From the NCBI RefSeq assembly GCF_024700885.2, contig NZ_CP117016.1: a stretch of DNA of 64,000 nt. One strand, written 5' to 3'. The translations under genes were made by a program, and so were the position numbers. Shown piece by piece: positions 4,796-48,973 of this stretch (position 1 is its first letter; every line of letters starts with the position of its first letter). Under the pieces are notes generated by a model, which had not been told where the DNA came from, made no database searches, and worked only from the letters and a program-made list of their open reading frames with translations. Source of the stretch: Escherichia coli. Lineage in GTDB: Bacteria; Pseudomonadota; Gammaproteobacteria; Enterobacterales; Enterobacteriaceae.

Positions 4796-5755
4796 TTGTT
4801 TCCATTTCGTCGTAACGTTCTTGCATTTGCCGCTCTGTTGGCGCTCTCCTCCCCCGTAATTGCTGGCAAGCTTGCCATCGTCATTGATGATTTTGGGTAT
4901 CGCCCGCACAACGAAAACCAGGTGCTGGCGATGCCTTCCGCTATCTCCGTCGCTGTATTACCCGATTCACCGCACGCCAGAGAGATGGCGACCAAAGCGC
5001 ATAACAGCGGTCACGAAGTGTTGATTCATCTACCGATGGCACCACTGAGTAAACAGCCGCTGGAGAAAAATACGCTACGCCCGGAGATGAGCAGCGACGA
5101 AATTGAGCGCATTATTCGTAGTGCGGTCAATAACGTGCCCTATGCCGTGGGGATCAACAACCACATGGGCAGCAAGATGACCTCTAACCTGTTTGGTATG
5201 CAGAAAGTGATGCAGGCGCTGGAGCGTTACAATCTTTACTTCCTCGACAGCGTAACCATCGGTAATACCCAGGCGATGCGCGCAGCGCAAGGCACTGGCG
5301 TGAAGGTGATCAAACGGAAAGTGTTCCTCGACGATTCGCAAAATGAAGCGGACATCCGTGTGCAATTCAATCGCGCAATTGACCTGGCACGTCGCAACGG
5401 TTCGACCATTGCCATTGGGCATCCTCACCCTTCAACGGTACGCGTGTTACAACAGATGGTTTATAACCTGCCGCCAGACATTACGCTGGTGAAAGCCAGC
5501 AGCTTGCTGAATGAACCGCAGGTTGATACGTCTACACCGCCGAAAAACACTGTGCCCGACACACCGCGTAATCCGTTCCGTGGCGTGAAGCTCTGCAAAC
5601 CGAAGAAACCGATAGAACCTGTTTATGCTAATCGCTTCTTTGAAGTATTAAGCGAAAGCATCAGCCAGAGCACGCTGATCGTTTACTTCCAGCATCAGTG
5701 GCAAGGCTGGGGCAAACAGCCTGAAGCGGCGAAGCTTAACGCTAGCGTAAATTAA
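4796..5755 (+). CDS. yibQ: divergent polysaccharide deacetylase family protein YibQ
   Basis: 319-aa ORF with signal peptide; matches YibQ; conserved position after envC. Confidence 0.9.
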
Positions 5756-6776
5756 AGGCGCTACGCGTAATGCGATGGTGCGACCGCGTTTTGTCGCGCC
5801 ATTGCCATAAGCGGAAAGACCACAGTAACGCCTGATAACCCACCTTCACGCTGCGCACATTGGTAATCAGGCGCTTATACATACCGGAAGTAAATATCTC
5901 GGCAATCATCCGTTGGCGGGTAATAATATCCGGCTCTTTGCGCACCGCATGGCAAACACGCAATGCTTCGTAAGTTATTTGCTGATGAAATTCCGGATAA
6001 ATCGTAATTTTGTCGGCATAATTTCGATTTAATTTCTCTAGCAGGCGGGTAATCTTAATATAGTGACGTTGATAATTAAGGTTTTTATTCCCTTGTCTGT
6101 TCAACCGACTCACTGACGTATTATGCAGATAATATTTATATAACGATTGCTCGGTATATCGCGCACGCAGCGCGTTAAACATGAATTCTGTTGTCCAGAC
6201 AATATCCTGATGATGTAATCCGGCAATAAATTTAATGTTATTTTTTACAATAACATCGCGGCGATAAATCCCCATCCAGACAACGTGAGTCCAACGGCGG
6301 GAAGAAAGCCCCATCCGCAACCAATCCGGGCCGGTTAATACGCCGGTTGAGCGAAGGCGATCGGTGGGGATGGATTGCCAGGTTTCTCCCGTTTCACGAA
6401 AACACCAGTCAGCGTTGCACTGCGCCACGTCGAGGTCGTCCTCTAACGCCATGGTCATCAGCGTTTCGTACATGGTGGGATACACCTCATCGTCAGCATC
6501 GACAAAAGCGACATATTTGCCCGTCGCCGCCTCGATCCCACGATTACGCGCCACCGATGCGCCAGCATTCGCCTGATGCAACAAACGAACGTGCGGATAG
6601 TTTTCTGCGTAATGCTTTGCTATTTCAACAGAATTATCCGTTGAACCATCGTTAATAATAATGATTTCCAGAGCAGTCCAGGTTTGCGTAATTAAAGATT
6701 CCATACACGTGCGGAAATCATCGCCCGCATTATATAACGGGATAATAACACTAAGTTTATTGGTGCTGTTCATCAT
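5742..6776 (-). CDS. waaH: family 2 glycosyltransferase WaaH (YibD)
   Basis: 344-aa ORF with GT2 motifs (IIPLYN...DGSTD...DADD); 3' end overlaps yibQ convergently. Confidence 0.9.
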
Positions 6777-8049: not shown

Positions 8050-9246
8050 TCAGGCGATAACGCCCAGTTGTTTACCAATACGCGTGAATGCTTCTACTGC
8101 ACGCGTAATTTGCTCAGGGGTATGCGCCGCAGACATCTGGGTACGAATACGCGCCTGACCTTTCGGAACGACCGGATAGAAGAAACCGGTGACGTAAATC
8201 CCCTCTTTTTGCAGCTCACGAGCAAATTTCTGCGCTACTACCGCATCGCCAAGCATGACCGGAATAATGGCGTGATCGGCTCCCGCCAGGGTAAAGCCCG
8301 CCGCCGACATTTGCTCACGGAACTGACGCGCGTTCGCCCACAGACGGTCACGCAGCTCGCTACCCGCTTCGACCATCTCCAGCACTTTGATGGAAGCGGC
8401 AACAATGGCCGGTGCCAGCGAGTTGGAGAACAGGTACGGACGAGAACGCTGGCGCAGCCACTCAACCACTTCTTTGCGCGCCGCGGTATAACCACCAGAA
8501 GCCCCGCCCAGCGCTTTACCAAGCGTACCGGTGATAATATCGACCCGGCCCATCACATCGCAGTATTCATGGGAACCACGACCATTTTCACCGACAAAAC
8601 CGACCGCGTGGGAGTCGTCTACCATCACCAGGGCATCGTATTTATCTGCCAGATCGCAAACGCCCTTCAGGTTGGCAATCACGCCGTCCATTGAGAACAC
8701 ACCATCGGTGGCAATCAGCACATGACGCGCACCGGCTTCACGCGCTTCTTTCAGACGTGCTTCCAGCTCCTGCATATCGTTGTTGGCATAACGATAGCGT
8801 TTAGCTTTGCACAGACGCACACCATCAATAATAGACGCGTGGTTCAGTGCGTCGGAGATAATGGCGTCTTCCGCGCCCAACAGCGTTTCGAACAGGCCAC
8901 CGTTAGCATCAAAGCAGGAAGAGTAGAGAATCGCATCTTCCATCCCCAGGAAGGCCGCCAGTTTTTGTTCAAGCTCTTTATGGCTGTCCTGAGTGCCGCA
9001 AATAAAACGCACCGAAGCCATGCCGAAACCGTGAGAATCCATTCCCGCCTTTGCCGCCGCAATCAGATCCGGATGATTCGCCAGTCCGAGATAGTTATTG
9101 GCACAAAAGTTAATGACGTGGCTTCCATCAGCCACAGTGATATCTGCTTGCTGCGCAGACGTAATAATGCGCTCTTCTTTAAACAACCCTTCCGCCCGTG
9201 CGGTTTCCAGATCGTTGGTTAACTGCTGATAAAATTCTCCACGCAT
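8050..9246 (-). CDS. kbl: 2-amino-3-ketobutyrate CoA ligase (glycine C-acetyltransferase)
   Basis: 398-aa PLP-dependent ORF matching Kbl; immediately upstream of tdh, operon arrangement. Confidence 0.95.
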
Positions 9247-9459
9247 TGCGATTCTCCAGACAGGGCAAATTCCAGCACATATTACCCAAACTTATAGGTC
9301 GCGACGAGATGACGCGTTAACACTTCTGCAAAATTCAGGATAAATAACGTCCATCAATCTCACTTTTGGCGAATGGCTGAAGCCAACGCCGTGTAGTGAT
9401 ATGATAGAAGCATTCGTGTCTGAGATTGTCTCTGACTCCATAATTCGAAGGTTACAGTT

Positions 9460-10392
9460 ATGATCATCGTTACCGGCGGCGCGGGCTTTATCGGCAGCAA
9501 CATCGTTAAAGCCCTGAATGACAAAGGCATCACCGATATTCTGGTGGTGGATAACCTGAAAGACGGCACCAAGTTTGTGAACCTGGTGGATCTGGATATC
9601 GCGGACTATATGGATAAGGAAGACTTCCTGATCCAGATTATGGCTGGCGAAGAGTTCGGCGATGTCGAAGCGATTTTCCACGAAGGTGCGTGCTCTTCCA
9701 CCACCGAGTGGGACGGCAAGTATATGATGGATAACAACTATCAATACTCCAAAGAGCTGCTGCACTACTGCCTGGAGCGCGAAATCCCGTTCCTGTACGC
9801 TTCTTCTGCAGCCACTTACGGCGGTCGCACCTCCGACTTTATTGAATCCCGCGAATATGAAAAACCGTTGAATGTCTACGGTTACTCAAAATTCCTGTTT
9901 GATGAATATGTTCGCCAAATCCTGCCGGAAGCCAACTCGCAGATTGTTGGCTTCCGCTATTTCAACGTTTATGGACCGCGTGAAGGCCATAAAGGCAGCA
10001 TGGCGAGCGTCGCTTTCCATCTCAACACTCAGCTTAACAACGGTGAATCACCGAAGCTGTTCGAAGGTAGCGAGAACTTCAAACGTGACTTCGTCTATGT
10101 GGGCGACGTGGCAGATGTAAACCTGTGGTTCCTGGAAAATGGCGTTTCCGGCATCTTCAACCTCGGTACTGGTCGTGCGGAATCCTTCCAGGCGGTAGCC
10201 GATGCAACGCTTGCTTATCACAAGAAAGGCCAGATCGAATACATTCCGTTCCCGGATAAACTGAAAGGCCGCTATCAGGCGTTCACGCAGGCAGATCTGA
10301 CGAATCTGCGCGCGGCGGGTTATGACAAACCGTTCAAAACCGTTGCCGAAGGCGTAACGGAATATATGGCCTGGCTGAATCGCGACGCATAA
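9460..10392 (+). CDS. hldD: ADP-L-glycero-D-manno-heptose 6-epimerase
   Basis: 310-aa ORF, N-terminal [11 protein letters not shown]-binding motif; matches HldD/RfaD. Confidence 0.95.
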
Positions 10393-10401
10393 GAGCTCTG
10401 C

Positions 10402-11448
10402 ATGAAAATACTGGTGATCGGCCCGTCTTGGGTTGGCGACATGATGATGTCGCAAAGTCTCTATCGCACGCTCCAGGCGCGCTATCCCCAGGCGATAATC
10501 GATGTGATGGCACCGGCATGGTGCCGTCCATTATTATCGCGGATGCCGGAAGTTAACGAAGCTATCCCTATGCCTCTCGGTCACGGAGCGCTGGAAATCG
10601 GCGAACGCCGCAAACTGGGTCATAGCCTGCGTGAAAAGCGCTACGACCGCGCCTACATCTTACCCAACTCCTTCAAATCTGCATTAGTGCCTTTCTTCGC
10701 GGGTATTCCTCATCGCACCGGCTGGCGCGGCGAGATGCGCTACGGTTTACTCAACGATGTACGTGTGCTCGATAAAGAAGCCTGGCCGCTAATGGTGGAA
10801 CGCTATGTCGCGCTGGCCTATGACAAAGGCGTTATGCGCACAGCACAAGATCTGCCGCAACCATTGTTATGGCCGCAGTTGCAGGTGAGCGAAGGTGAAA
10901 AATCATATACCTGTAATCAATTTTCGCTTTCATCAGAACGTCCGATGATTGGCTTTTGCCCGGGTGCGGAGTTTGGTCCGGCAAAACGCTGGCCACACTA
11001 CCACTATGCAGAACTGGCAAAGCAACTGATTGATGAAGGTTATCAGGTGGTTCTGTTTGGCTCGGCGAAAGATCATGAAGCGGGCAATGAGATTCTTGCC
11101 GCTTTAAATACCGAGCAGCAGGCATGGTGCCGGAACCTGGCAGGGGAAACACAGCTTGATCAAGCGGTTATCCTGATTGCAGCCTGTAAAGCCATTGTCA
11201 CTAACGATTCTGGCCTGATGCACGTTGCGGCGGCGCTCAATCGTCCGCTGGTTGCCTTGTATGGTCCGAGTAGCCCGGACTTCACACCGCCGCTATCCCA
11301 TAAAGCACGCGTGATCCGCCTGATTACCGGCTATCACAAAGTGCGTAAAGGTGACGCTGCGGAGGGTTATCACCAGAGCTTGATCGACATTACTCCCCAG
11401 CGCGTACTGGAAGAACTCAACGCGCTATTGTTACAAGAGGAAACCTGA
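10402..11448 (+). CDS. waaF: LPS heptosyltransferase II
   Basis: 348-aa GT9 ORF matching WaaF. Confidence 0.93.
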   Translation: MKILVIGPSWVGDMMMSQSLYRTLQARYPQAIIDVMAPAWCRPLLSRMPEVNEAIPMPLGHGALEIGERRKLGHSLREKRYDRAYILPNSFKSALVPFFAGIPHRTGWRGEMRYGLLNDVRVLDKEAWPLMVERYVALAYDKGVMRTAQDLPQPLLWPQLQVSEGEKSYTCNQFSLSSERPMIGFCPGAEFGPAKRWPHYHYAELAKQLIDEGYQVVLFGSAKDHEAGNEILAALNTEQQAWCRNLAGETQLDQAVILIAACKAIVTNDSGLMHVAAALNRPLVALYGPSSPDFTPPLSHKARVIRLITGYHKVRKGDAAEGYHQSLIDITPQRVLEELNALLLQEET

Positions 11449-11451
11449 CGG

Positions 11452-12411
11452 ATGCGGGTTTTGATCGTTAAAACATCGTCGATGGGCGATGTTCTCCATA
11501 CGCTGCCCGCACTCACTGATGCCCAGCAGGCAATCCCAGGGATTAAGTTTGACTGGGTGGTGGAAGAAGGGTTCGCACAGATTCCTTCCTGGCACGCCGC
11601 CGTTGAGCGAGTTATTCCTGTGGCAATACGTCGCTGGCGTAAAGCCTGGTTCTCGGCCCCCATAAAAGCTGAACGGAAAGCGTTTCGTGAAGCGCTACAA
11701 GCAGAGAACTATGACGCAGTTATCGACGCTCAGGGGCTGGTAAAAAGCGCGGCGCTGGTGACGCGTCTGGCGCATGGCGTAAAGCATGGAATGGACTGGC
11801 AAACCGCTCGCGAACCTTTAGCCAGCCTGTTTTACAATCGTAAGCATCATATTGCAAAACAGCAGCACGCCGTAGAACGCACCCGCGAACTGTTTGCCAA
11901 AAGTCTGGGCTATAGCAAACCGCAAACCCAGGGCGATTATGCTATTGCACAGCATTTCTTGACGAACCTGCCTACAGATGCTGGCGAATATGCCGTATTT
12001 CTTCATGCGACGACCCGTGATGATAAACACTGGCCGGAAGAACACTGGCGAGATTTGATTGGTTTACTGGCAGATTCAGGAATACGGATTAAACTTCCGT
12101 GGGGCGCGCCGCATGAGGAAGAACGGGCGAAACGACTGGCGGAAGGATTTGCTTATGTTGAAGTATTGCCGAAGATGAGTCTGGAAGGCGTTGCCCGCGT
12201 GCTGGCTGGGGCTAAATTTGTAGTGTCGGTGGATACGGGGTTAAGCCATTTAACGGCGGCACTGGATAGACCGAATATCACGGTTTATGGACCAACCGAT
12301 CCGGGATTAATTGGCGGATATGGGAAGAATCAGGTGGTTTGTAGGGCTCCGCTAATGAATTTAAATAATTTAGAAGCAGCGGCTGTTTATAAAAAAATCA
12401 CATTAATTTAA
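11452..12411 (+). CDS. waaC: LPS heptosyltransferase I
   Basis: 319-aa GT9 ORF matching WaaC. Confidence 0.93.
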   Translation: MRVLIVKTSSMGDVLHTLPALTDAQQAIPGIKFDWVVEEGFAQIPSWHAAVERVIPVAIRRWRKAWFSAPIKAERKAFREALQAENYDAVIDAQGLVKSAALVTRLAHGVKHGMDWQTAREPLASLFYNRKHHIAKQQHAVERTRELFAKSLGYSKPQTQGDYAIAQHFLTNLPTDAGEYAVFLHATTRDDKHWPEEHWRDLIGLLADSGIRIKLPWGAPHEEERAKRLAEGFAYVEVLPKMSLEGVARVLAGAKFVVSVDTGLSHLTAALDRPNITVYGPTDPGLIGGYGKNQVVCRAPLMNLNNLEAAAVYKKITLI

Positions 12412-12416
12412 TAAAT

Positions 12417-12443
12417 AGTAAGTGGGCATTATACCCACTTACT
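12417..12443. terminator. perfect inverted repeat (agtaagtggg / cccacttact, 7-nt loop) between convergent waaC and the ligase gene
   Basis: Palindrome read directly from sequence in the 47-bp convergent intergenic gap; A/T-rich flanks on both sides. Confidence 0.5.
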
Positions 12444-12458
12444 TAGTCAACGCTTTTA

Positions 12459-13712
12459 TTATTGTGGTTCATTTTTACTCAAAAACGATATAGACAGGAA
12501 GAGGCACACAATCCACGATGCCGGTATTGGTTTAGCATGTGTAATGACATCACTAATGCCAAATAACATAATAGAAGCAGGGAAAACCAAGAGTATATAT
12601 TTTTTCTCTCGTATACAGTAATAGATCATTGCAACATAGAACATAATAAGAACAAGAAGACCAATTTTTCCTTTCGTGGAAAGAGATTCCACAATTTCGT
12701 TATGCATATGTACATCAAGGAATAATAAAGCTCCACTATAAATATTATTTTCTGCACTTAATGCTTTTATCTTTTCAGCACGCTGCTCAAGAGATTGCCA
12801 ATTAAAACCATCAGGACTTCCTTTAATTCCTGCATTAACCATTGCAAAACGTGCTCCGACCGAGGATTGACTGTTATTTTTTGTAGCATATGAAATAACA
12901 TCAGCTTTTAATGAATTAATTCGCCTATCAATTTCCTTATTAAATATCAAACCACAAGCAAGTAGCAATATAAAAACACCACTCAATCCTTTAAATAAAA
13001 ACACTTTTTGATCACGATGCTGAAGAAATAATATGACCATAATCATAAGTGGGAATGTGAAAATTGCCGCACGCGTTCCTGTCATCATTACTGCTGCAAA
13101 GCTTAAAGCAAAGTTAGCATAAAATAGAAACCATTTATATTTCGATTGCATTTTTATGAATACAATTGAAGAATATAAAGTTGTAAATGTAATCACATAA
13201 GCCGCAATAGTCGCTGCCCCCATCTGACCAATATTCCCATTCATGGCGGAGAGGGGAATGCGGTCTGCATGCAAATATATCCCTTGATAATATGCTCTAC
13301 ATAGCATGATTATTTGAACTAAGATAGCTGAAATAAAATGTAGTTTTTCATTTTGCCTGAATTTATTTTTACTTAGTAATAAAAATGTCAACGAGCTAAA
13401 TACTAATAGTTTTCCAGACTCAAGGTAGCCTCGATAAGCATTTCTATATACTACATCTTCTGTTTTATAAAATTCATACCATATAAGGTTCATTGCACCC
13501 AAAAGAAGTAAACCAAGAATTAATATAATGACATTTTTATTATAATTGTGCTTTTTATTTACAATTAATAAGAAAAGAGAAAATGCACCTGTCGCATTAA
13601 TTATTTTAGTGGTGATATTAAGATCAATTGGCACAAACAACAAACCGATTAAATACAATAAAAAAATAAAATTACAGCTATTATTTCGAAATTGCTCAAT
13701 TTTTACTTCCAC
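12459..13712 (-). CDS. waaL: O-antigen ligase (WaaL family), polytopic membrane protein
   Basis: 417-aa very hydrophobic AT-rich ORF at the distal end of the minus-strand outer-core operon; the position WaaL occupies in R1/R3/R4 core types. Confidence 0.8.
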   Translation of the reverse strand: MEVKIEQFRNNSCNFIFLLYLIGLLFVPIDLNITTKIINATGAFSLFLLIVNKKHNYNKNVIILILGLLLLGAMNLIWYEFYKTEDVVYRNAYRGYLESGKLLVFSSLTFLLLSKNKFRQNEKLHFISAILVQIIMLCRAYYQGIYLHADRIPLSAMNGNIGQMGAATIAAYVITFTTLYSSIVFIKMQSKYKWFLFYANFALSFAAVMMTGTRAAIFTFPLMIMVILFLQHRDQKVFLFKGLSGVFILLLACGLIFNKEIDRRINSLKADVISYATKNNSQSSVGARFAMVNAGIKGSPDGFNWQSLEQRAEKIKALSAENNIYSGALLFLDVHMHNEIVESLSTKGKIGLLVLIMFYVAMIYYCIREKKYILLVFPASIMLFGISDVITHAKPIPASWIVCLFLSISFLSKNEPQ

Positions 13713-13746
13713 GTTAATATCTCACAACAAATTGAAATTAACAATC

Positions 13747-14520
13747 TCATTTCAAAAGAGAAAAAAAAGCCACCTTTATCCAGGAGCGTATAAACTTCAT
13801 TCTTTTCTGAAGCCTTGTTCTAGGTTGTTTTTTTTCCGATGTTAATAGCCTTTCACTTTCAAGATGACTATTAAACTCATTTAAAATAGGATGTAATATT
13901 ATTTCGTCTAAATAAAACTCTTTTATAATATTATGTTGATGCATTAACTTCCAGCTATCAGCTCGATAGGTGCCATAATCCTTTGTCAATTTGAGCAACT
14001 TTTGTGCCATATCTTTATTCATCAAATATGAACATGTACGACGAATTTTATTTTTATTGAAATTAACACGCCGAAAAGTACAAGTACTTACCTTAACTTT
14101 ACTAAAAAGGCTTTGCCCCAATACCGGATAATCATGTAATCCTTTCTGTCCTCCAAGCAAATACAAATTATTATGTTTTAACTTGTCTTTTTCAGGAAGA
14201 TTAAAATATTGCAGAAATTTTTTAAATTTCTCATTGACGATAACATCATCCTCGAGAATGACTGCCCATTCTATATTTTTATCTATCATATCCTTATATA
14301 TAAGCTGATGACTTAATGTACAAGCAATTTCTCCATCAGTCATTTCTGCGCCGACACCACTTAATCTCATTTTATCAATAATTTCTTTATTTTGAGGGTC
14401 TTTAGCATCTATGGCATCAAAAAAATCAAAATTAATATTTAATCGATGAAAAACATCATTTATTTTATTTCTTCGCTCAATATCTCTTTTAAGTGAGACA
14501 ATATAAATGGGCAGGTTCAT
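13747..14520 (-). CDS. outer-core beta-glycosyltransferase, GT25 (Lic2A/LgtB-like) family; WaaV/WaaX position
   Basis: 257-aa ORF beginning IYIVSLKRDIERR, typical GT25 N-terminus; cannot decide WaaV (R1) versus WaaX (R4) without alignment. Confidence 0.7.
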   Translation of the reverse strand: MNLPIYIVSLKRDIERRNKINDVFHRLNINFDFFDAIDAKDPQNKEIIDKMRLSGVGAEMTDGEIACTLSHQLIYKDMIDKNIEWAVILEDDVIVNEKFKKFLQYFNLPEKDKLKHNNLYLLGGQKGLHDYPVLGQSLFSKVKVSTCTFRRVNFNKNKIRRTCSYLMNKDMAQKLLKLTKDYGTYRADSWKLMHQHNIIKEFYLDEIILHPILNEFNSHLESERLLTSEKKQPRTRLQKRMKFIRSWIKVAFFSLLK

Positions 14521-14551
14521 TAAAAAATCTCTGGGTGATTAATCTTAATAA

Positions 14552-15580
14552 TTATTTGGAAAAATGCTTACGCGCTATTTTCTTACTATAATAGAGCATG
14601 AAATAGTAAAATGAAGATGCAATATTACCATTTCTTTTCAAATGTCCGGATTTCACTTGATACTGCTTTTCATTCGTGGCTGGAATAAACGCCACATCAT
14701 TCCAGCAAGAAGCCTGATAAGCCTCATTAAAATACTTCTGGCAGGGATAATTCGTCCAGTCGTTCCAGGGCTTCGTTACGCCAACATAATGAATCAGCTT
14801 AGTATCATCGGTAATGGTCTTTTTATAATCTTCATCGCTTTTATTTTTTAACTCATAGTCAATGCCATAAAAGCAATCATAATCGCCGCTAATAAAAATA
14901 CAATGACCAAAGAACAGAATATTTAAAATATCCTGATCAAGGCATTTATACTTCGTATGCTGCGGGTCACTTGCCAGCATAGCAATGGCTTTATTCATAA
15001 AATCATTTTTCGCCCATGCTTCAAGCTGCAGATATACTACACCGGCGTTGAAATAATTACCTGGAAGTCCCTCTATAGCCAGACGCTTCGCTGGTTTTTC
15101 CTGCATAAAAGGCACATCTTTAATAACAGCTGCGAACTTATCGCCATCAAAATTAATATCAAGCAATCCAGCTAATGAGCCTTTACAGATGACATCAGCA
15201 TCGATATATAACAGATTTTCAATAACTTCACTCAGATACTGGAACGCAACTAAACGGAAGAATGTTGCATAAGACCACTGTTTCAGGCTGGGGAAGATAT
15301 CAATAAAGGCACTGGAGACTTTATAAATTCTTACTTCAACGTTAGCATTTTTGCTAGTAAAAGCGTTAACACGTTGTAGATAATCTTCATCAATGTAGTC
15401 GGTAAAGAGATGAAACTTAACCGCAAGGTCCGGGTTATGCATAATAACTGATTGCATAGATACTGCCGCACCAAATAAAAAGTTGCGGTCAATACCGTAA
15501 GCGATATTTAACACACGATCGGTGTTAGTAATTTTCCCAGAGACAGTGACTTCAGTAATACTCTCAGCTAATAAATCCAT
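14552..15580 (-). CDS. outer-core alpha-glycosyltransferase, GT8 family (WaaW-like position)
   Basis: 342-aa ORF with GT8 signature (YGID...NAGVVY...DQD); paralogous to the two GT8 ORFs at 16308-18336. Confidence 0.75.
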   Translation of the reverse strand: MDLLAESITEVTVSGKITNTDRVLNIAYGIDRNFLFGAAVSMQSVIMHNPDLAVKFHLFTDYIDEDYLQRVNAFTSKNANVEVRIYKVSSAFIDIFPSLKQWSYATFFRLVAFQYLSEVIENLLYIDADVICKGSLAGLLDINFDGDKFAAVIKDVPFMQEKPAKRLAIEGLPGNYFNAGVVYLQLEAWAKNDFMNKAIAMLASDPQHTKYKCLDQDILNILFFGHCIFISGDYDCFYGIDYELKNKSDEDYKKTITDDTKLIHYVGVTKPWNDWTNYPCQKYFNEAYQASCWNDVAFIPATNEKQYQVKSGHLKRNGNIASSFYYFMLYYSKKIARKHFSK

Positions 15581-15605
15581 GTTGGTTCCGTTTTGACTGT
15601 GTGGT

Positions 15606-16298
15606 TTACGCTTTGCCTTTTAATTTTTTAATAAATTTGCGTAGTTTGGTTCTGTAGATTACTGAATAGTAGCCATAATCTTTTATTTCGTTGGCAATAC
15701 CCAGGTGACGTTCCATGGCCAGACGATCACGAGCTTTACGCTCTGCCGTACAGCTTTTACCGGATAGGTCAATTATCCTGACACCATCTTTACTAACGAT
15801 AAAGTTACCCCGGTGTGGGTCGCCCGATAGCATATTTAAGGCATGCAATTTTTCCATTGAAGCCTTAATTTCTGCTTTAACATTTTCTGGAATAATCGGC
15901 ATATCATTGAGCTCTACGCCCTCGACATACTCGATAAGCATGATAAAAACACTGGCATAGTTGAAAAATTTACGCTCAGCCAGAAAATAAAAATCATTAG
16001 GAAAAGTAAGACCTGCACTTCTGACACGATCGGTTTCAACGATCAAATTCTGATAGTAGTCACCTTTTACAAAAGATTTAAAAAAACGTTCATTCCTTTT
16101 CGTTTTCGGAGCAAAGACTTTAAAAACATAGCGACCATATTTCGTATCAATCAACGATACTTTGGTATCATCAATATTACGTAATACTTTTACTGTTTTA
16201 AAATTATAGGCCAGTATTTCATCAAAGATTTCTTTATATTTATTATCATTATCTTTGTAATAAAATGAGAAGCCGCGATAACGTATACTTGTAATCAT
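15606..16298 (-). CDS. waaY: LPS core heptose II kinase
   Basis: 230-aa kinase-like ORF in the position WaaY holds in the core operon. Confidence 0.8.
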   Translation of the reverse strand: MITSIRYRGFSFYYKDNDNKYKEIFDEILAYNFKTVKVLRNIDDTKVSLIDTKYGRYVFKVFAPKTKRNERFFKSFVKGDYYQNLIVETDRVRSAGLTFPNDFYFLAERKFFNYASVFIMLIEYVEGVELNDMPIIPENVKAEIKASMEKLHALNMLSGDPHRGNFIVSKDGVRIIDLSGKSCTAERKARDRLAMERHLGIANEIKDYGYYSVIYRTKLRKFIKKLKGKA

Positions 16299-16307
16299 AA
16301 GAGTAAT

Positions 16308-17303
16308 TTATTTCTTAAGCTTGTACTTAATTAATGAAGTTATGCCTTTTATATACTCACCATGGGCAAACAGATGCTTATATTGTTTCTGCATTTCTGC
16401 AACAGTCCGCGCCTCTTTAAGAGGATATTTCTTCCAGGGAGATTGTTCACGCGCGATATTAAAGTATGATGCAGACGGATATCCAGCCCAGCTATGCCAT
16501 GGTTTAGTTATCCCTGTATAGTGAATCAACACTGTTTTATCGGTAATGGTTTGCTGATACTTTCGATGACTACGATCATAAAGTTCGTTTTTCAGGGTAT
16601 AAATAGTATCAAAATCCTTCGCAAGGTAGATATTATTCATATTAAATGCGATATTCAACGCATCCTGATCTAAATATTTAAGAGAGCCATATTTAGTTTC
16701 CCCTCGTAAAAGTTTGAGTAAATACGGTGTCAAATTTGCTTCATGCCATTTTTTAAGATTGACATAGATAACGCCTGCATTGAAATAACGTCCATTCATT
16801 TCGGGAATGTTGAGGCGTTTTGCACATGCCGCCTGAGTACTATCATTGTCAGGAATGACCGCAGCAAACTCATCTTTAAATATAATTTCTGTGAGAGGTT
16901 TCAGGCTTCCTTTACAAACAACATCGGCATCCAGATACAGCAGTGTGGAAATACTTTCACTCAGATATTCAAAAGACAATACCCTGAAGTATGTCGCGTA
17001 CGACCAAAACTGTGACGTCGGCAGATCAGCAAAGTATTTGGGGTCAATTAAATATACAATAATTGAGGTATTAAATTGTTTTGCTGTTTCATTAAATGAC
17101 TTTAAATAATCATCATCCACATAATCAGTGAAAACATGAAAGACAAAATTAATATCTGAATTATTAATCAAAACGGAAGAAATTGAAACGCCAGCACCAT
17201 ACAAAAAATTCTTATCGATACCGTAGGAAACATTTAGCTCTGGGGCGTTTTCTTTTTTATTATCTGCTAAATACGAAAACCGTTCTTTTATAAATTCATT
17301 CAT
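16308..17303 (-). CDS. outer-core alpha-glycosyltransferase, GT8 family (WaaT-like position)
   Basis: 331-aa GT8 ORF; paralog of neighbours. Confidence 0.75.
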   Translation of the reverse strand: MNEFIKERFSYLADNKKENAPELNVSYGIDKNFLYGAGVSISSVLINNSDINFVFHVFTDYVDDDYLKSFNETAKQFNTSIIVYLIDPKYFADLPTSQFWSYATYFRVLSFEYLSESISTLLYLDADVVCKGSLKPLTEIIFKDEFAAVIPDNDSTQAACAKRLNIPEMNGRYFNAGVIYVNLKKWHEANLTPYLLKLLRGETKYGSLKYLDQDALNIAFNMNNIYLAKDFDTIYTLKNELYDRSHRKYQQTITDKTVLIHYTGITKPWHSWAGYPSASYFNIAREQSPWKKYPLKEARTVAEMQKQYKHLFAHGEYIKGITSLIKYKLKK

Positions 17304-17319
17304 TTAACTTTTCTCAATT

Positions 17320-18336
17320 TCATTTTATTATCTTTAAATAAAAATAATAAATATAATTCATTATCCCGTTAATTGGTTTATTTTGTTTAAAATTATGCTT
17401 GGCGCAATAACGAGCATAGTTTGAGTTAACTGGCCGCATTAACGGTTCATTTTTCCAGGGCGATGCTTCTTTGGCTTTGATAAAAGGTTGCGCACTTGGA
17501 TAACCGGCCCAGTAATGCCAGGGTTTTGTCGGGCCGACATAATGAATTAATACGGTTTCATCATTAATTGGACAAACAAATGATTTTTTTAATTCATAAT
17601 TTAAACTAAATTGCGTATTGTATTTAGCATCAATGAATTTAACTTTCCCTAACAGGATAAGATTAAGGATATCTTGATCCATATAGGTTAAACGGGAAAC
17701 GATGGCTTTATCAGCAAGCATCGACATCGCTTTAGCAGAAACGGACTCCTGCGCCCACGCTAGTGTATTAATTAACAGGACACCTGAATTAAAGTAACCC
17801 TTTTCAAGTTCATTACACTGCAGACTTTGACCCCGTAACGACCACCAGTTAGCATCGCGTTCAGTAACAACAGCAGCAACGTTATTGGCAAGATCCATTG
17901 TTATCAGCGGCTTTAAGTTTCCCTGACAGGCGATATCAGCATCCAGGTAAAGGATCTTATCTTGTTGATCAATAAAGTAATCTGCAATTACAAAACGGAA
18001 ATACATGGCAATAGACCAATTTTTGGTCGTCGGTAATGCCTTAAGCCGTTCACAATTTACTAGATGGATCTGGATACAGGTACGATAGCTTTTCGCCAAT
18101 TGGGCTAAACGCTGGATATCGGCTTCAGGGATAGCATCAATAAAAACGTGGAAAACAAAACTCACGTCGTTGTTATGTAACAAAACTGACGTGATTGAAA
18201 CACCACAACCAAAAAGAAAGTTTTTATCAATGCCATAAGAAACATGGAATGATGATGCCACTGACGCCGCTGGCCTTTCATCGAAGATGATTGTCTTATT
18301 GATCATCTCTTGTGGATTAAAATAGTGGGCACTCAT
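17320..18336 (-). CDS. outer-core alpha-1,3-glucosyltransferase, GT8 family (WaaO-like position)
   Basis: 338-aa GT8 ORF directly downstream of waaP. Confidence 0.75.
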   Translation of the reverse strand: MSAHYFNPQEMINKTIIFDERPAASVASSFHVSYGIDKNFLFGCGVSITSVLLHNNDVSFVFHVFIDAIPEADIQRLAQLAKSYRTCIQIHLVNCERLKALPTTKNWSIAMYFRFVIADYFIDQQDKILYLDADIACQGNLKPLITMDLANNVAAVVTERDANWWSLRGQSLQCNELEKGYFNSGVLLINTLAWAQESVSAKAMSMLADKAIVSRLTYMDQDILNLILLGKVKFIDAKYNTQFSLNYELKKSFVCPINDETVLIHYVGPTKPWHYWAGYPSAQPFIKAKEASPWKNEPLMRPVNSNYARYCAKHNFKQNKPINGIMNYIYYFYLKIIK

Positions 18337-18351
18337 ATTTCTCTCCGGAAA

Positions 18352-19149
18352 TTACAACGATTTTCTAATCGTTCTTTCCCTGATTTTTGTGGCTTTTGCT
18401 TCTGCTTGCGACAGCAGCCCTTGTTCCTGCTTGAGAATGTCTTTAAGCGGGGCGACAAAATACTCTTTCATAAACCGCCAGATATCCCGCTGAGTCAGGC
18501 TAATATTCATCGAAGAAAAATAAAGCCCTATAAGATCTTTATCGCGCCAACGACGTGGAACGCGCGTGCGAAGCTGCGCCCGGTGCAGGTCAATTACCGA
18601 AATTTTTAACTCCTCTTCCTTACCGGAAAAAGGCAAGTGCAGCAGGAAATGACAGATATAACAGTCACGGTGGTTAATGCCCGCAGCATGCATATCGCGC
18701 ACCATCGTCGCGACACGCTTAATAAGCATACGCTTTACGCGAACATCTGGAGGGTTAGTCGCCCAGTCAGCACAGTAATCTTCCAGACTTATGGTTGGTG
18801 TCAGATCTTCGGTAATAATAAATGAAGTTCTGGTAAGCGGATTCATGCCTTTTTCGCCAAATGCCACCCCATACATAGTATCAACGCCGACATCCCGCAG
18901 TCGATGAATCGCATTCCATTCGCGGTCTGCGCCTAATACTGGCATCCGCAATGAGAGTAAATTTTTGATTATCTCTTTCAGGGTCGTGCCGCGATGCCAT
19001 TTGAGAAAATAGCTTTTGCCCGCCATTTCAAAGCGCAGAGTGCGGCGAGTTTCCAGTTCACGAAAAACCTCACCCTGCAAGGTTTTAACTTCCTCAAAAG
19101 GATCTTTACCACGCCATAACGTGGCAAACGGCTCTTTAAGTTCAACCAT
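18352..19149 (-). CDS. waaP: LPS core heptose I kinase
   Basis: 265-aa product from [21 protein letters not shown]; track ORF is 3 codons longer. Confidence 0.92.
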
Positions 19150-20266
19150 CCAGACCACCCGTTATGATATCCGCCGCTTTTTCTGGCAGACTGTATAAAT
19201 CTTGTGTATCAGCATAATGTCGCGCATTTTCCGCCCAGGCCTGGCGCAATGAAGATTGCGTTAACGCTTTGCGTAAAATCTCATTCAATGTTTCCTGGCG
19301 GAATGGCTCAGCAATAGCCTCGCCGCAATTGGCGTCAACAATATAATGCGCATAGCCACAAACGGCTGTCGTTAGTACCGGTAATCCTGCAGTAATCGCT
19401 TCCAGCAGCACAATTCCCGCCGCTTCCTGGTAGGCAGGATGCAGTAATAAATCCGCCGCCGCCATTAATTCCGAGACATCGTTGCGCCCCGAGAAGAAGT
19501 GAACATTACTGCGCACGCCGCGTTTTTCTGCCAGCGCCTCAAATTTTCGCGGTTTATCCTGCCCAACAACATATAGCAATGTGTTGTGGCGCAGCGAATC
19601 CGGTAACGAAGCAAGTGCTTCAATGGAACGATCGACACCTTTACGCGTGAAGTCTGAACCGACCTGCAACAATAAATATTGTTGTTCGGTTATTCCATTC
19701 TTCTTACGGAAGATTTCACGGCTATTAGCTGGCTGCTGGCTATATTTACGATCAGGATAAATCCCCGGTGGCAGAATATGAAAACGCTCCGCTTCAGTCT
19801 GATAATGTTTCTGGAAATCGGCGATTTGCTTATCTGTCAGCATCAGCAGCTGTGTCGGCTTGCCCTGTTCGAAGGTTGCCCGCTCAAAGGCGGCATAATG
19901 GCGATAACGTGACGTCAAGCGATAGAAAAAGCCTTTTTCCTGCGCTACTTTCTCGGCATAACAAACATCAGCGGCATAATAAACGTCCAGCCCCGGCATT
20001 TTGTTGAATCCAACGACTTTATCGACGGGATGTTCGCGTAAATGTTTTTGCACCCAGGCAAAATACTCCGCATTGCGCCCGTGATTGGTATGCGATTTAA
20101 CCGGCACTTTGATCAGTTCAAATACATCAGGGCATTCGCCTTCCCACGACTGGGTATAAACCCGAACATGATGACCTCGGGCGGCGACTGTCTGAGCAAT
20201 ACGCATAAAATCGCGCTGCAAACCGCCAAAGGGAAAATATTTATATAAACAAAAAGCAACGATCAT
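19142..20266 (-). CDS. waaG: LPS glucosyltransferase I (GT4)
   Basis: 374-aa ORF matching WaaG; overlaps the waaP start. Confidence 0.93.
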
Positions 20267-21321
20267 AACGACGTACCTGTCGTGGAGGAGGGCAGTAATT
20301 TATCGACAGCAGCAATGACATCTGCCGCCGGAATAACCGAAAGATACATCTCATTTCGGTCACGCTGATCGCGCGTTGGCATTTCCCGGTAATCTCCCGC
20401 CCAGAATTGAATCATGTTATTTGACCAGGGACGCCAGAAAATATGGTCTGTCGCACCAAACAGCGATATCAGCGGCGTATTAACTGCAGCGGCAATATGC
20501 GCCGGTGCGGAATCAACGCCAATAAACAGCTGCGCATGATCGATTAACGCACCAAGTTCCGGGAAGGTCACCTTTCCGGCCAGCGCCGTTACTGGTGGCG
20601 TCTGGCATCCCTGGGCAATTTCATTGACGCAGGCCAGATCGTCTTTATCTGGGCCGGACGTCAGAACGACTTCATAACCACGCGCATGTAAGGCATCAAT
20701 CACAGCGGAAAACTTGGCGTTGTCCCAGCATTTGAAGATTTGCCGCGCCGTAGGTTGGATAACCACATAATTTTGTCCAACACCAGCGTGATCAAGTTCG
20801 CGACGCATACGTTTCCAACTTGCAGGCGGGTAACTCATGGTTGTCTGCTTCACCAACGAATCAAGTCCCAATGGTGTCAGCACGGATAAGTTACTTTCCA
20901 CCACATTTCCACCCTGCAACGGCACCAAATGGGTGAAACTTTTACGCCAAAAAGCAGACTGCCGATGATGATAATCCTGGGAAATTTTCACACGGGCATT
21001 TAATAAGCGAACCAGTATAGCAACCATCCATTGATCGGTAAGATTAACGATAAGGTCATACTTATTGGCACGTAATACCTTGATGAGATGAAAAAAGTTG
21101 GAAATTTTTTCTGCGGCTTTTGCTTTTTTATTTTTTATGCCGTAGAGCGCGTTAATCTCTGGATTTTCAGACAGGATCGGGATGGTGTCCTGATAAAGCA
21201 GCACATCGATTTTTGCGTCAGGGTAATTTTTTTTCAGCGAACTAATGACGGGAGTAGTTAATAACATATCCCCATGAAAACGCATCTTAATGAGCAAAAT
21301 TCTTCGAAATGGCTTATCCAC
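20263..21321 (-). CDS. waaQ: LPS heptosyltransferase III
   Basis: GT9-family ORF, first gene of the minus-strand core operon; true start may be an internal Met (MRFHGDML). Confidence 0.88.
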   Translation of the reverse strand: MDKPFRRILLIKMRFHGDMLLTTPVISSLKKNYPDAKIDVLLYQDTIPILSENPEINALYGIKNKKAKAAEKISNFFHLIKVLRANKYDLIVNLTDQWMVAILVRLLNARVKISQDYHHRQSAFWRKSFTHLVPLQGGNVVESNLSVLTPLGLDSLVKQTTMSYPPASWKRMRRELDHAGVGQNYVVIQPTARQIFKCWDNAKFSAVIDALHARGYEVVLTSGPDKDDLACVNEIAQGCQTPPVTALAGKVTFPELGALIDHAQLFIGVDSAPAHIAAAVNTPLISLFGATDHIFWRPWSNNMIQFWAGDYREMPTRDQRDRNEMYLSVIPAADVIAAVDKLLPSSTTGTSL

Positions 21322-21370: not shown

Positions 21371-21382
21371 CACGCTACCGCC
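21371..21382 (-). promoter_or_regulatory. ops element (5'-GGCGGTAGCGTG-3') in the waaQ operon leader; RfaH-dependent antitermination site within JUMPstart
   Basis: Exact 12-mer read on the minus strand about 50 nt upstream of waaQ; ops consensus recalled from literature. Confidence 0.85.
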
Positions 21383-21733: not shown

Positions 21734-23498
<1,765 letters not shown>

Positions 23499-48878: not shown

Positions 48879-48973
48879 GGAAGATCGTCGTCTCCGGTGA
48901 GGCGGCTGGACTTCAAATCCAGTTGGGGCCGCCAGCGGTCCCGGGCAGGTTCGACTCCTGTGATCTTCCGCCA
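48879..48973 (+). tRNA. selC: tRNA-Sec (selenocysteine, UCA anticodon), 95 nt including CCA
   Basis: Sequence GGAAGATCGTCGTCTCCGGTGAGGCGGCTGGACTTCAAATCCAGTTGGGGCCGCCAGCGGTCCCGGGCAGGTTCGACTCCTGTGATCTTCCGCCA read directly; long extra arm and 8-bp acceptor stem typical of tRNA-Sec. Confidence 0.97.

Follow-up and report, generated by a model that had tools for sequence, protein, structure and literature searches.

The waa locus of an Escherichia coli genome segment is assigned to lipopolysaccharide core type R4

In a stretch of 64,000 nucleotides from Escherichia coli (NCBI RefSeq assembly GCF_024700885.2, contig NZ_CP117016.1), referred to as the window in the following, we have analyzed the genes for the assembly of the lipopolysaccharide (LPS) core. 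They almost certainly form a canonical and intact E. coli waa (rfa) locus of core type R4, with hldD-waaF-waaC on the plus strand, waaL-X-W-Y-T-O-P-G-Q on the minus strand and waaA again on the plus strand. Gene content, gene order, intactness, R4 typing and population frequency can be read directly from the sequences, and the window holds nothing that argues against R4. The outer-core operon consists of the following genes, given with their lengths in amino acids (aa) and the matches on which the names rest; GT denotes glycosyltransferase families.

12459-13712, minus strand: waaL (R4 allele), 417-aa O-antigen (surface polymer):lipid A-core ligase (Pfam Wzy_C, E=1.8e-7)
13747-14520, minus strand: waaX, 257-aa GT25 beta-1,4-galactosyltransferase (Pfam Glyco_transf_25, 175 bits)
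14552-15580, minus strand: waaW, 342-residue GT8 enzyme (GT8 and GT8C domains)
15606-16298, minus strand: waaY, 230-aa core heptose(II) kinase (RfaY equivalog, 400 bits; Pfam WaaY, 430 bits)
16308-17303, minus strand: waaT, 331-aa GT8 enzyme, UDP-galactose:(glucosyl)LPS alpha-1,2-galactosyltransferase (GT8 and GT8C domains)
17320-18336, minus strand: waaO, 338-aa GT8 alpha-1,3-hexosyltransferase for the second outer-core glucose (NF011718, 610 bits at a cut-off of 461; waaO in RefSeq)
18352-19149, minus strand: waaP, 265-aa core heptose(I) kinase (RfaP equivalog, 479 bits; RefSeq start)
19142-20266, minus strand: waaG, 374-aa GT4 glucosyltransferase I for the first outer-core glucose (Pfam Glycos_transf_1 and Glyco_transf_4)
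20263-21321, minus strand: waaQ, 352-aa heptosyltransferase III, the first gene of the operon (RfaQ equivalog, 713 bits)

According to the map of open reading frames (ORFs) and to NCBIfam and Pfam scans, nine full-length minus-strand ORFs fill 12459-21321 in the order waaQ-waaG-waaP-GT8-GT8-waaY-GT8-GT25-ligase, which is exactly the order and the span that an earlier reading of the bare sequence (the first-pass annotation) had given. All nine are of full length compared to their homologs. Between 12300 and 21500, the DNA matches the chromosome of E. coli MLI114 at 100% identity. In MLI114, all nine genes are intact and carry no pseudogene flags in RefSeq, and the locus is compact and uninterrupted, with neither an insertion sequence (IS) element nor a duplicated gene. 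Two details of the map deserve mention: the start of waaP follows RefSeq (19149, 265 aa) rather than the GTG at 19158, to which the ORF can be extended; and waaT is named by its position and its identity to the R1 homolog.

The decision between the core types R1 and R4 falls at the GT25 gene, as the first-pass annotation had anticipated, since the R1 comparator locus has a GT2 gene, waaV (327 aa), at the same position. In an exact-sequence look-up, the GT25 protein is identical to the UniRef entry Q9ZIS2_ECOLX, ‘Beta-1,4-galactosyltransferase’. Protein comparison finds no homolog of it in the R1, R2, R3 or K-12 comparator loci, and tblastn finds no waaV homolog in the waa locus of the window. 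The earlier lean to WaaX and R4, which had been weak, is thus vindicated by the identity to Q9ZIS2 together with the typing product described below. WaaX and WaaV are the determinants of R4 and R1, respectively (PMC3526765), and the R4 core, with a Gal3-Glc2 outer core, has a beta-Gal-(1->4)-alpha-Glc side branch, which is the ligation site of the enterobacterial common antigen (ECA) (PMC7504096).

On the family level, WaaX resembles the GT25 beta-1,4-galactosyltransferases of lipooligosaccharide synthesis, i.e. Haemophilus Lic2A and Neisseria LgtB, with which it shares the Pfam family PF01755 (175 bits), but it differs from them in its acceptor, the second glucose of the LPS outer core (GlcII), and in its genomic context. 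Its N-terminal catalytic region also matches the solved GT25 structures 8XC8 and 8XLZ (E~1e-13), to which only residues ~6-105 align by sequence.

The product of the gene next to waaX is listed in UniRef, with exactly this sequence, as ‘Lipid A-core surface polymer ligase WaaL’. Its identity is 35% to R1 WaaL and 32% to K-12 WaaL, and the WaaL proteins of R2 and R3 match neither this ligase nor anything else in the window. It matches the solved WaaL structure 7TPG (E=5.5e-8), and the residues aligned to R215, R288 and H338 of K-12 WaaL, the last in the ‘HN’ motif, are conserved. WaaL ligases are polytopic membrane proteins that have a Wzy_C domain and, in their large periplasmic loop, conserved Arg/Arg/His residues; with a Wzy_C domain and the aligned Arg/Arg/His residues, the protein has the features by which a WaaL is predicted from sequence. 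Likewise, its distinctness from the R1, K-12, R2 and R3 proteins and its linkage to waaX in 690 genomes (see below) mark this waaL as a putative R4-specific allele. The comparison of the GT25 protein and the ligase with the other core types had been put forward in the first-pass annotation as a way to check its reading, and it came out in favor of that reading, with the GT25 protein absent from R1, R2, R3 and K-12 and the ligase diverged to the values just given; best matches to K-12, R2 or R3 proteins, the outcome that it had named as fatal, were looked for and did not occur.

Core typing by polymerase chain reaction (PCR), the other check proposed there, was run in silico with the nine published LPSTyper core-typing primers and their expected product sizes (PMC13293308 Table 2). 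In the window, it yields the R4 product only, with the published length of 380 bp and zero mismatches:

14332-14711: R4 typing amplicon, 380 bp, with primer R4-F in waaX (14332-14350) and primer R1R4-R in waaW (in-silico PCR)

While the reverse primer, R1R4-R, is common to R1 and R4, the type-specific primers for R1, R2, R3 and K-12 have no site in the window even at 3 mismatches. The comparator loci served as positive controls and typed as expected, that is, L002 as R1 (842 bp), L003 as R3 (1021 bp), L006 as R2 (610 bp), and L004 and L005 as K-12 (1442 bp). The primers have been validated in vitro on ECOR04 and ECOR58; MLI114 was not found in the supplementary typing tables of PMC13293308.

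Aligned to the R1 locus L002 by blastn, the window runs colinear with it at 97-98% identity as far as 12351 and resumes at 14623, the DNA in between being unmatched. As judged from this alignment, the intervening segment is the only DNA that sets the locus apart from the R1 locus:

12352-14622: R4-specific cassette of 2.27 kb, comprising the last ~60 nt of waaC, waaL(R4), waaX and the last ~70 nt of waaW (blastn against R1 L002)

Of 5426 complete E. coli genomes, 690 (12.7%) carry this cassette, with 95-100% identity and nearly always as a single chromosomal copy; it is also single in the near-identical genome MLI114. Its frequency agrees with the published R4 frequencies of 12.3% (PMC13293308) and 13.0% (PMC8715443), i.e. 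12.3-13%. Three of the places that match the cassette lie on records labelled as plasmids. In one of 692 genomes with the cassette, that of strain 98222 (NZ_CP173480.1 2366563-2369610), an IS1 is inserted in the waaX/waaL region, which suggests that this strain may be a natural rough or core-defective variant.

The edges of the cassette fall inside coding sequence (12333-12411 and 14552-14650) and not at gene boundaries. In all five core types (R1-R4 and K-12), divergence sets in at one common position ~60 nt ahead of the waaC stop codon, so that WaaC has type-specific C-termini and a total length of 318-330 aa. Of the 32 C-terminal residues of WaaW, 22 differ between R1 and R4, while the remainder is ~98% identical. 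That the type-switch boundaries lie within coding sequence, at the 3' ends of waaC and waaW, is the sole mildly unexpected detail of the locus. The type-specific tails might be functionally co-adapted to the side-branch transferase or the ligase, for example through acceptor recognition or through membrane or protein contacts, which we consider rather improbable; alternatively, they are passive hitch-hikers at recombination breakpoints.

Outside of the cassette, the proteins of the locus closely resemble those of R1. WaaQ, G, P, O, T and Y share 97-100% identity with the homologs in L002; the individual values are 100% for WaaG, 99.1% for WaaT, 98.7% for WaaY, 97.9% for WaaO, 96.6% for WaaP and, in addition, 91.8% for WaaW. 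WaaG is also 90% identical to K-12 RfaG, and for the GT8 enzymes and WaaY, identity to the counterparts in R3, K-12 and R2 is only 38-54%. The members of the WaaW cluster in UniRef are named WaaW. The exact WaaW sequence of the window is a rare allele, found on 7 contigs as compared to 408 for a common R4 allele, to which it is 98% identical; the 7 of 342 residues that differ are conservative or peripheral substitutions, and the DXD motif (DAD) is intact.

The name of the first GT8 enzyme calls for a comment, as both NCBIfam NF011718 and RefSeq label WaaO ‘lipopolysaccharide 3-alpha-galactosyltransferase’, while the literature has the WaaO enzymes of R1, R4 and K-12 as alpha-1,3-glucosyltransferases. 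It appears that the equivalog name of NF011718 merges WaaO, which transfers glucose, with WaaI, which transfers galactose. We considered whether this gene could be the R3 or Salmonella waaI, as the NCBIfam name might suggest, and rejected this, given 97.9% identity to R1 WaaO and 54% to the R3 homolog.

Compared to the R4 locus (waaQGPOTYWXL), the window has the same gene order and content, with a GT25 gene, waaX, and a distal waaL, and it also agrees in typing amplicon and population frequency. Nothing of substance differs, WaaW being a minor allelic variant. The R4 waa locus is reportedly that of the type strain F2513, said to have been described by Heinrichs et al. in 1998 (Journal of Biological Chemistry, JBC 273:29497).

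Some points weigh against this assignment. Expression and the actual LPS chemotype are not readable from DNA. The link to the type strain F2513 is indirect and runs through the UniRef name and accession and through primers validated on ECOR04 and ECOR58. With 31.5 bits, the ligase scores marginally under the Wzy_C gathering cut-off of 31.7. Lastly, one review gives the linkage formed by WaaX as beta-1,3 (PMC3526765); it is beta-1,4 according to the typing paper (PMC13293308) and a structural study (PMC7504096), with which the UniRef name agrees.

Among the other core types, R1, the commonest in E. coli, comes closest. Its locus (waaQGPOTYWVL) has the same architecture as the window, with the ligase at the distal end and convergent with waaC, and the first-pass annotation was right to call the architecture R1/R4-type rather than K-12-type, as the ligase is distal in the waaQ operon both in the window and in L002. 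That the locus is of type R1 could thus be argued from an identical gene order and from seven of the nine genes, which are 92-100% identical to those of the R1 locus. Nevertheless, this is exceedingly improbable: the window has the GT25 gene waaX where R1 has the 327-aa GT2 gene waaV, a beta-1,3-glucosyltransferase, the whole 2.27-kb cassette is swapped, WaaW and WaaC differ in their C-terminal ~32 and ~20 residues, respectively, the ligase shares just 35% identity with R1 WaaL, and primer R1-F has no site even at 3 mismatches, so that no 842-bp product is formed. The sole match of R1 WaaV in the window, a weak one at 6360-6776 (33% identity over 139 aa), was rejected as a waaV candidate; it belongs to a GT2 gene of the yibD/waaH type, which could mislead an automated waaV search:

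5742-6776, minus strand: 344-aa GT2 glycosyltransferase, yibD/waaH-type by its position beside tdh-kbl (PRK10073 equivalog, 633 bits)

Even less probability, practically none, is left for a locus of type K-12, R2 or R3, or for a hybrid with one of them, despite the fact that WaaQ, WaaG and WaaP are 98-99.7% identical to proteins of the R3 locus. The K-12 locus (waaQGPSBOJYZU) shares the flanks, hldD-waaFC and waaA-coaD, and the ops leader (see below) with the window, and has waaQ, G, P and Y in common with it at 53-90% protein identity. However, K-12 has its waaL in another operon and on the other strand, it possesses waaS, waaB, waaZ and waaU, and it has no GT25 gene. In K-12 (L004), R2 (L006) and R3 (L003) alike, waaL directly follows waaC on the plus strand and the outer-core gene sets differ, whereas in the window the ligase gene is the last of the waaQ operon and lies on the minus strand. 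By tblastn, K-12 WaaS, WaaB, WaaZ and WaaU have no homolog anywhere in the window; the WaaL proteins of R2 and R3 are likewise unmatched, R3 WaaD and R2 WaaK match WaaG alone, and weakly, and there are no binding sites for the primer pairs of R2, R3 and K-12.

Two further readings accept the R4 genes and question what they amount to. In the R1/R4 hybrid strain ECOR46 (PMC13293308), there is a precedent for a second, R1-type waaV-waaL pair, which in the present case would have to lie outside of the window, the 64 kb of the genome that were examined, and would lead to a mixed or chimeric LPS. As with type R1 itself, there is hardly any chance of this. The locus is compact and has no IS element or duplicated gene, the window contains no homolog of R1 WaaV and no second WaaL, and the cassette occurs only once in the near-identical MLI114; for the 64-kb window itself, such a hybrid is rejected, as there is no second ligase, waaV or IS element in it. 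Somewhat more probable, yet still very unlikely, is that the strain is genetically R4 but phenotypically altered, i.e. that a point mutation or a lack of expression results in a rough or truncated core. While the rarity of the WaaW variant (7 contigs) and its 7 substitutions relative to the common R4 allele could be taken as a hint in this direction, all nine ORFs are of full length, the WaaW substitutions are conservative or peripheral and spare the DAD motif, the key residues of WaaL are conserved, and the ops leader is present.

The R4 operon is framed by conserved inner-core genes and putative regulatory elements.

9460-10392, 10402-11448 and 11452-12411, plus strand: hldD(rfaD)-waaF-waaC operon (ORFs; annotation of the identical MLI114 locus; RfaC equivalog, 629 bits)
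12417-12443, no strand: hairpin with a 12-bp stem in the waaC/waaL spacer (search for terminator-like sites)
21371-21382, minus strand: ops element GGCGGTAGCGTG in a JUMPStart-like leader, 50-61 nt upstream of the waaQ start (pattern match at 21375-21382; leader sequence)
21734-23011, plus strand: waaA (Kdo transferase), transcribed divergently from waaQ and marking the conserved right border of the locus (ORF; RefSeq annotation)

The products of hldD, waaF and waaC are the ADP-heptose epimerase and the heptosyltransferases II and I of the inner core. The ligase gene, the most distal one of the waaQ operon, is convergent to waaC, again in line with the first-pass annotation, and the two are separated by a spacer of 47 bp, whose hairpin is probably a bidirectional terminator. 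At the other end, the leader upstream of waaQ carries the ops element GGCGGTAGCGTG; RfaH-dependent (ops/JUMPStart) operons are recognized by an ops element GGCGGTAGnnTG in the transcribed leader of their first gene. The ops element is the loading site of RfaH, and RfaH-dependent antitermination of this long, AT-rich operon is known; the element upstream of waaQ is consistent with it, and RfaH would be expected to load there. On the left flank, at 9247-9459 (about 9351-9410), yibB/htrL is absent between kbl (8050-9246) and hldD/rfaD (9460). The K-12 and R3 comparator loci have a ~1.28-kb yibB insertion between these two genes, whereas the R2 comparator is without it, as is the window.

In its base composition, the operon falls into two parts. 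The segment from waaL to waaO (12459-18336, 5,878 bp) has a GC content of 34.6%, as compared to 49.7% for the rest of the window, which confirms the AT-rich distal 6 kb seen at first pass; by gene, the values are 31.7% for waaL, 30.1% for the GT25 gene, 37.4% for waaW, 35.2% for waaY, 35.4% for waaT and 38.1% for waaO. The proximal genes waaP, waaG and waaQ have 47-48% each and 47.5% taken together. Outside of the operon, the minimum for any 5.9-kb stretch of the window is 37.3%. Low GC is thus not confined to the waa operon, and the window has a second low-GC island at ~53-60.5 kb.

How these genes may work together can be outlined from the well-studied R1/R4 system and from the papers cited here, rather than from tests on this DNA. 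The enzyme roles in R1/R4 core assembly are reportedly those given by Heinrichs et al. in 1998, and linkage specificities, RfaH dependence and ligation site are inferred from the literature. Transcription would start upstream of waaQ, and RfaH loaded at the ops element would carry the RNA polymerase through the AT-rich distal genes. WaaG would add the first glucose (GlcI) to the second heptose (HepII), WaaO would add GlcII in alpha-1,3 linkage, WaaT the first galactose (GalI) to GlcII and WaaW the second (GalII) to GalI, both in alpha-1,2 linkage, so that WaaG, O, T and W would together build the main chain Gal-alpha1,2-Gal-alpha1,2-Glc-alpha1,3-Glc. The GT25 enzyme WaaX would then place the R4-defining beta-Gal-(1->4) side branch on GlcII (in R1, the GT2 enzyme WaaV adds beta-Glc-(1->3) instead), and WaaQ, WaaP and WaaY would account for the addition of HepIII and the phosphorylation of HepI and HepII. 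After the flip across the inner membrane, the R4 WaaL would ligate O antigen or ECA, linked to undecaprenyl pyrophosphate (Und-PP), to the finished core. The ligation site would most probably be the beta-Gal side branch, to which ECA has been mapped in R4 (PMC7504096).

The second low-GC block, at ~53450-64000 (34-41% GC), occupies the other end of the window, with tRNA-Sec (48879-48973) and a rhuM remnant a few genes away. In the annotation of the 99.99%-identical MLI114, the products of this block are a SycD/LcrH-type chaperone, type III translocon and tip proteins that resemble YopB/SseC and IpaD/SipD, EilA as a regulator of the HilA family, and the beginning of the giant inverse autotransporter IatC, which has tandem internal repeats of ~291 bp at 62.6-64 kb. 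R4 is enriched in the phylogroups D, F and G (PMC13293308), and this fits the eilA/eip/iatC island.

The R4 waa locus is already known and well described, roughly one E. coli in eight has it, and its occurrence here adds no new biology. As a textbook R4 locus at this frequency, it is an ordinary finding, although one that the first-pass annotation had read correctly from the letters alone. Its value is practical, if limited: the source strain can be assigned to LPS core type R4, and this assignment may serve as metadata for the prediction of phage receptors, for the coverage of antibodies and vaccines directed against the core, and for O-antigen ligation.

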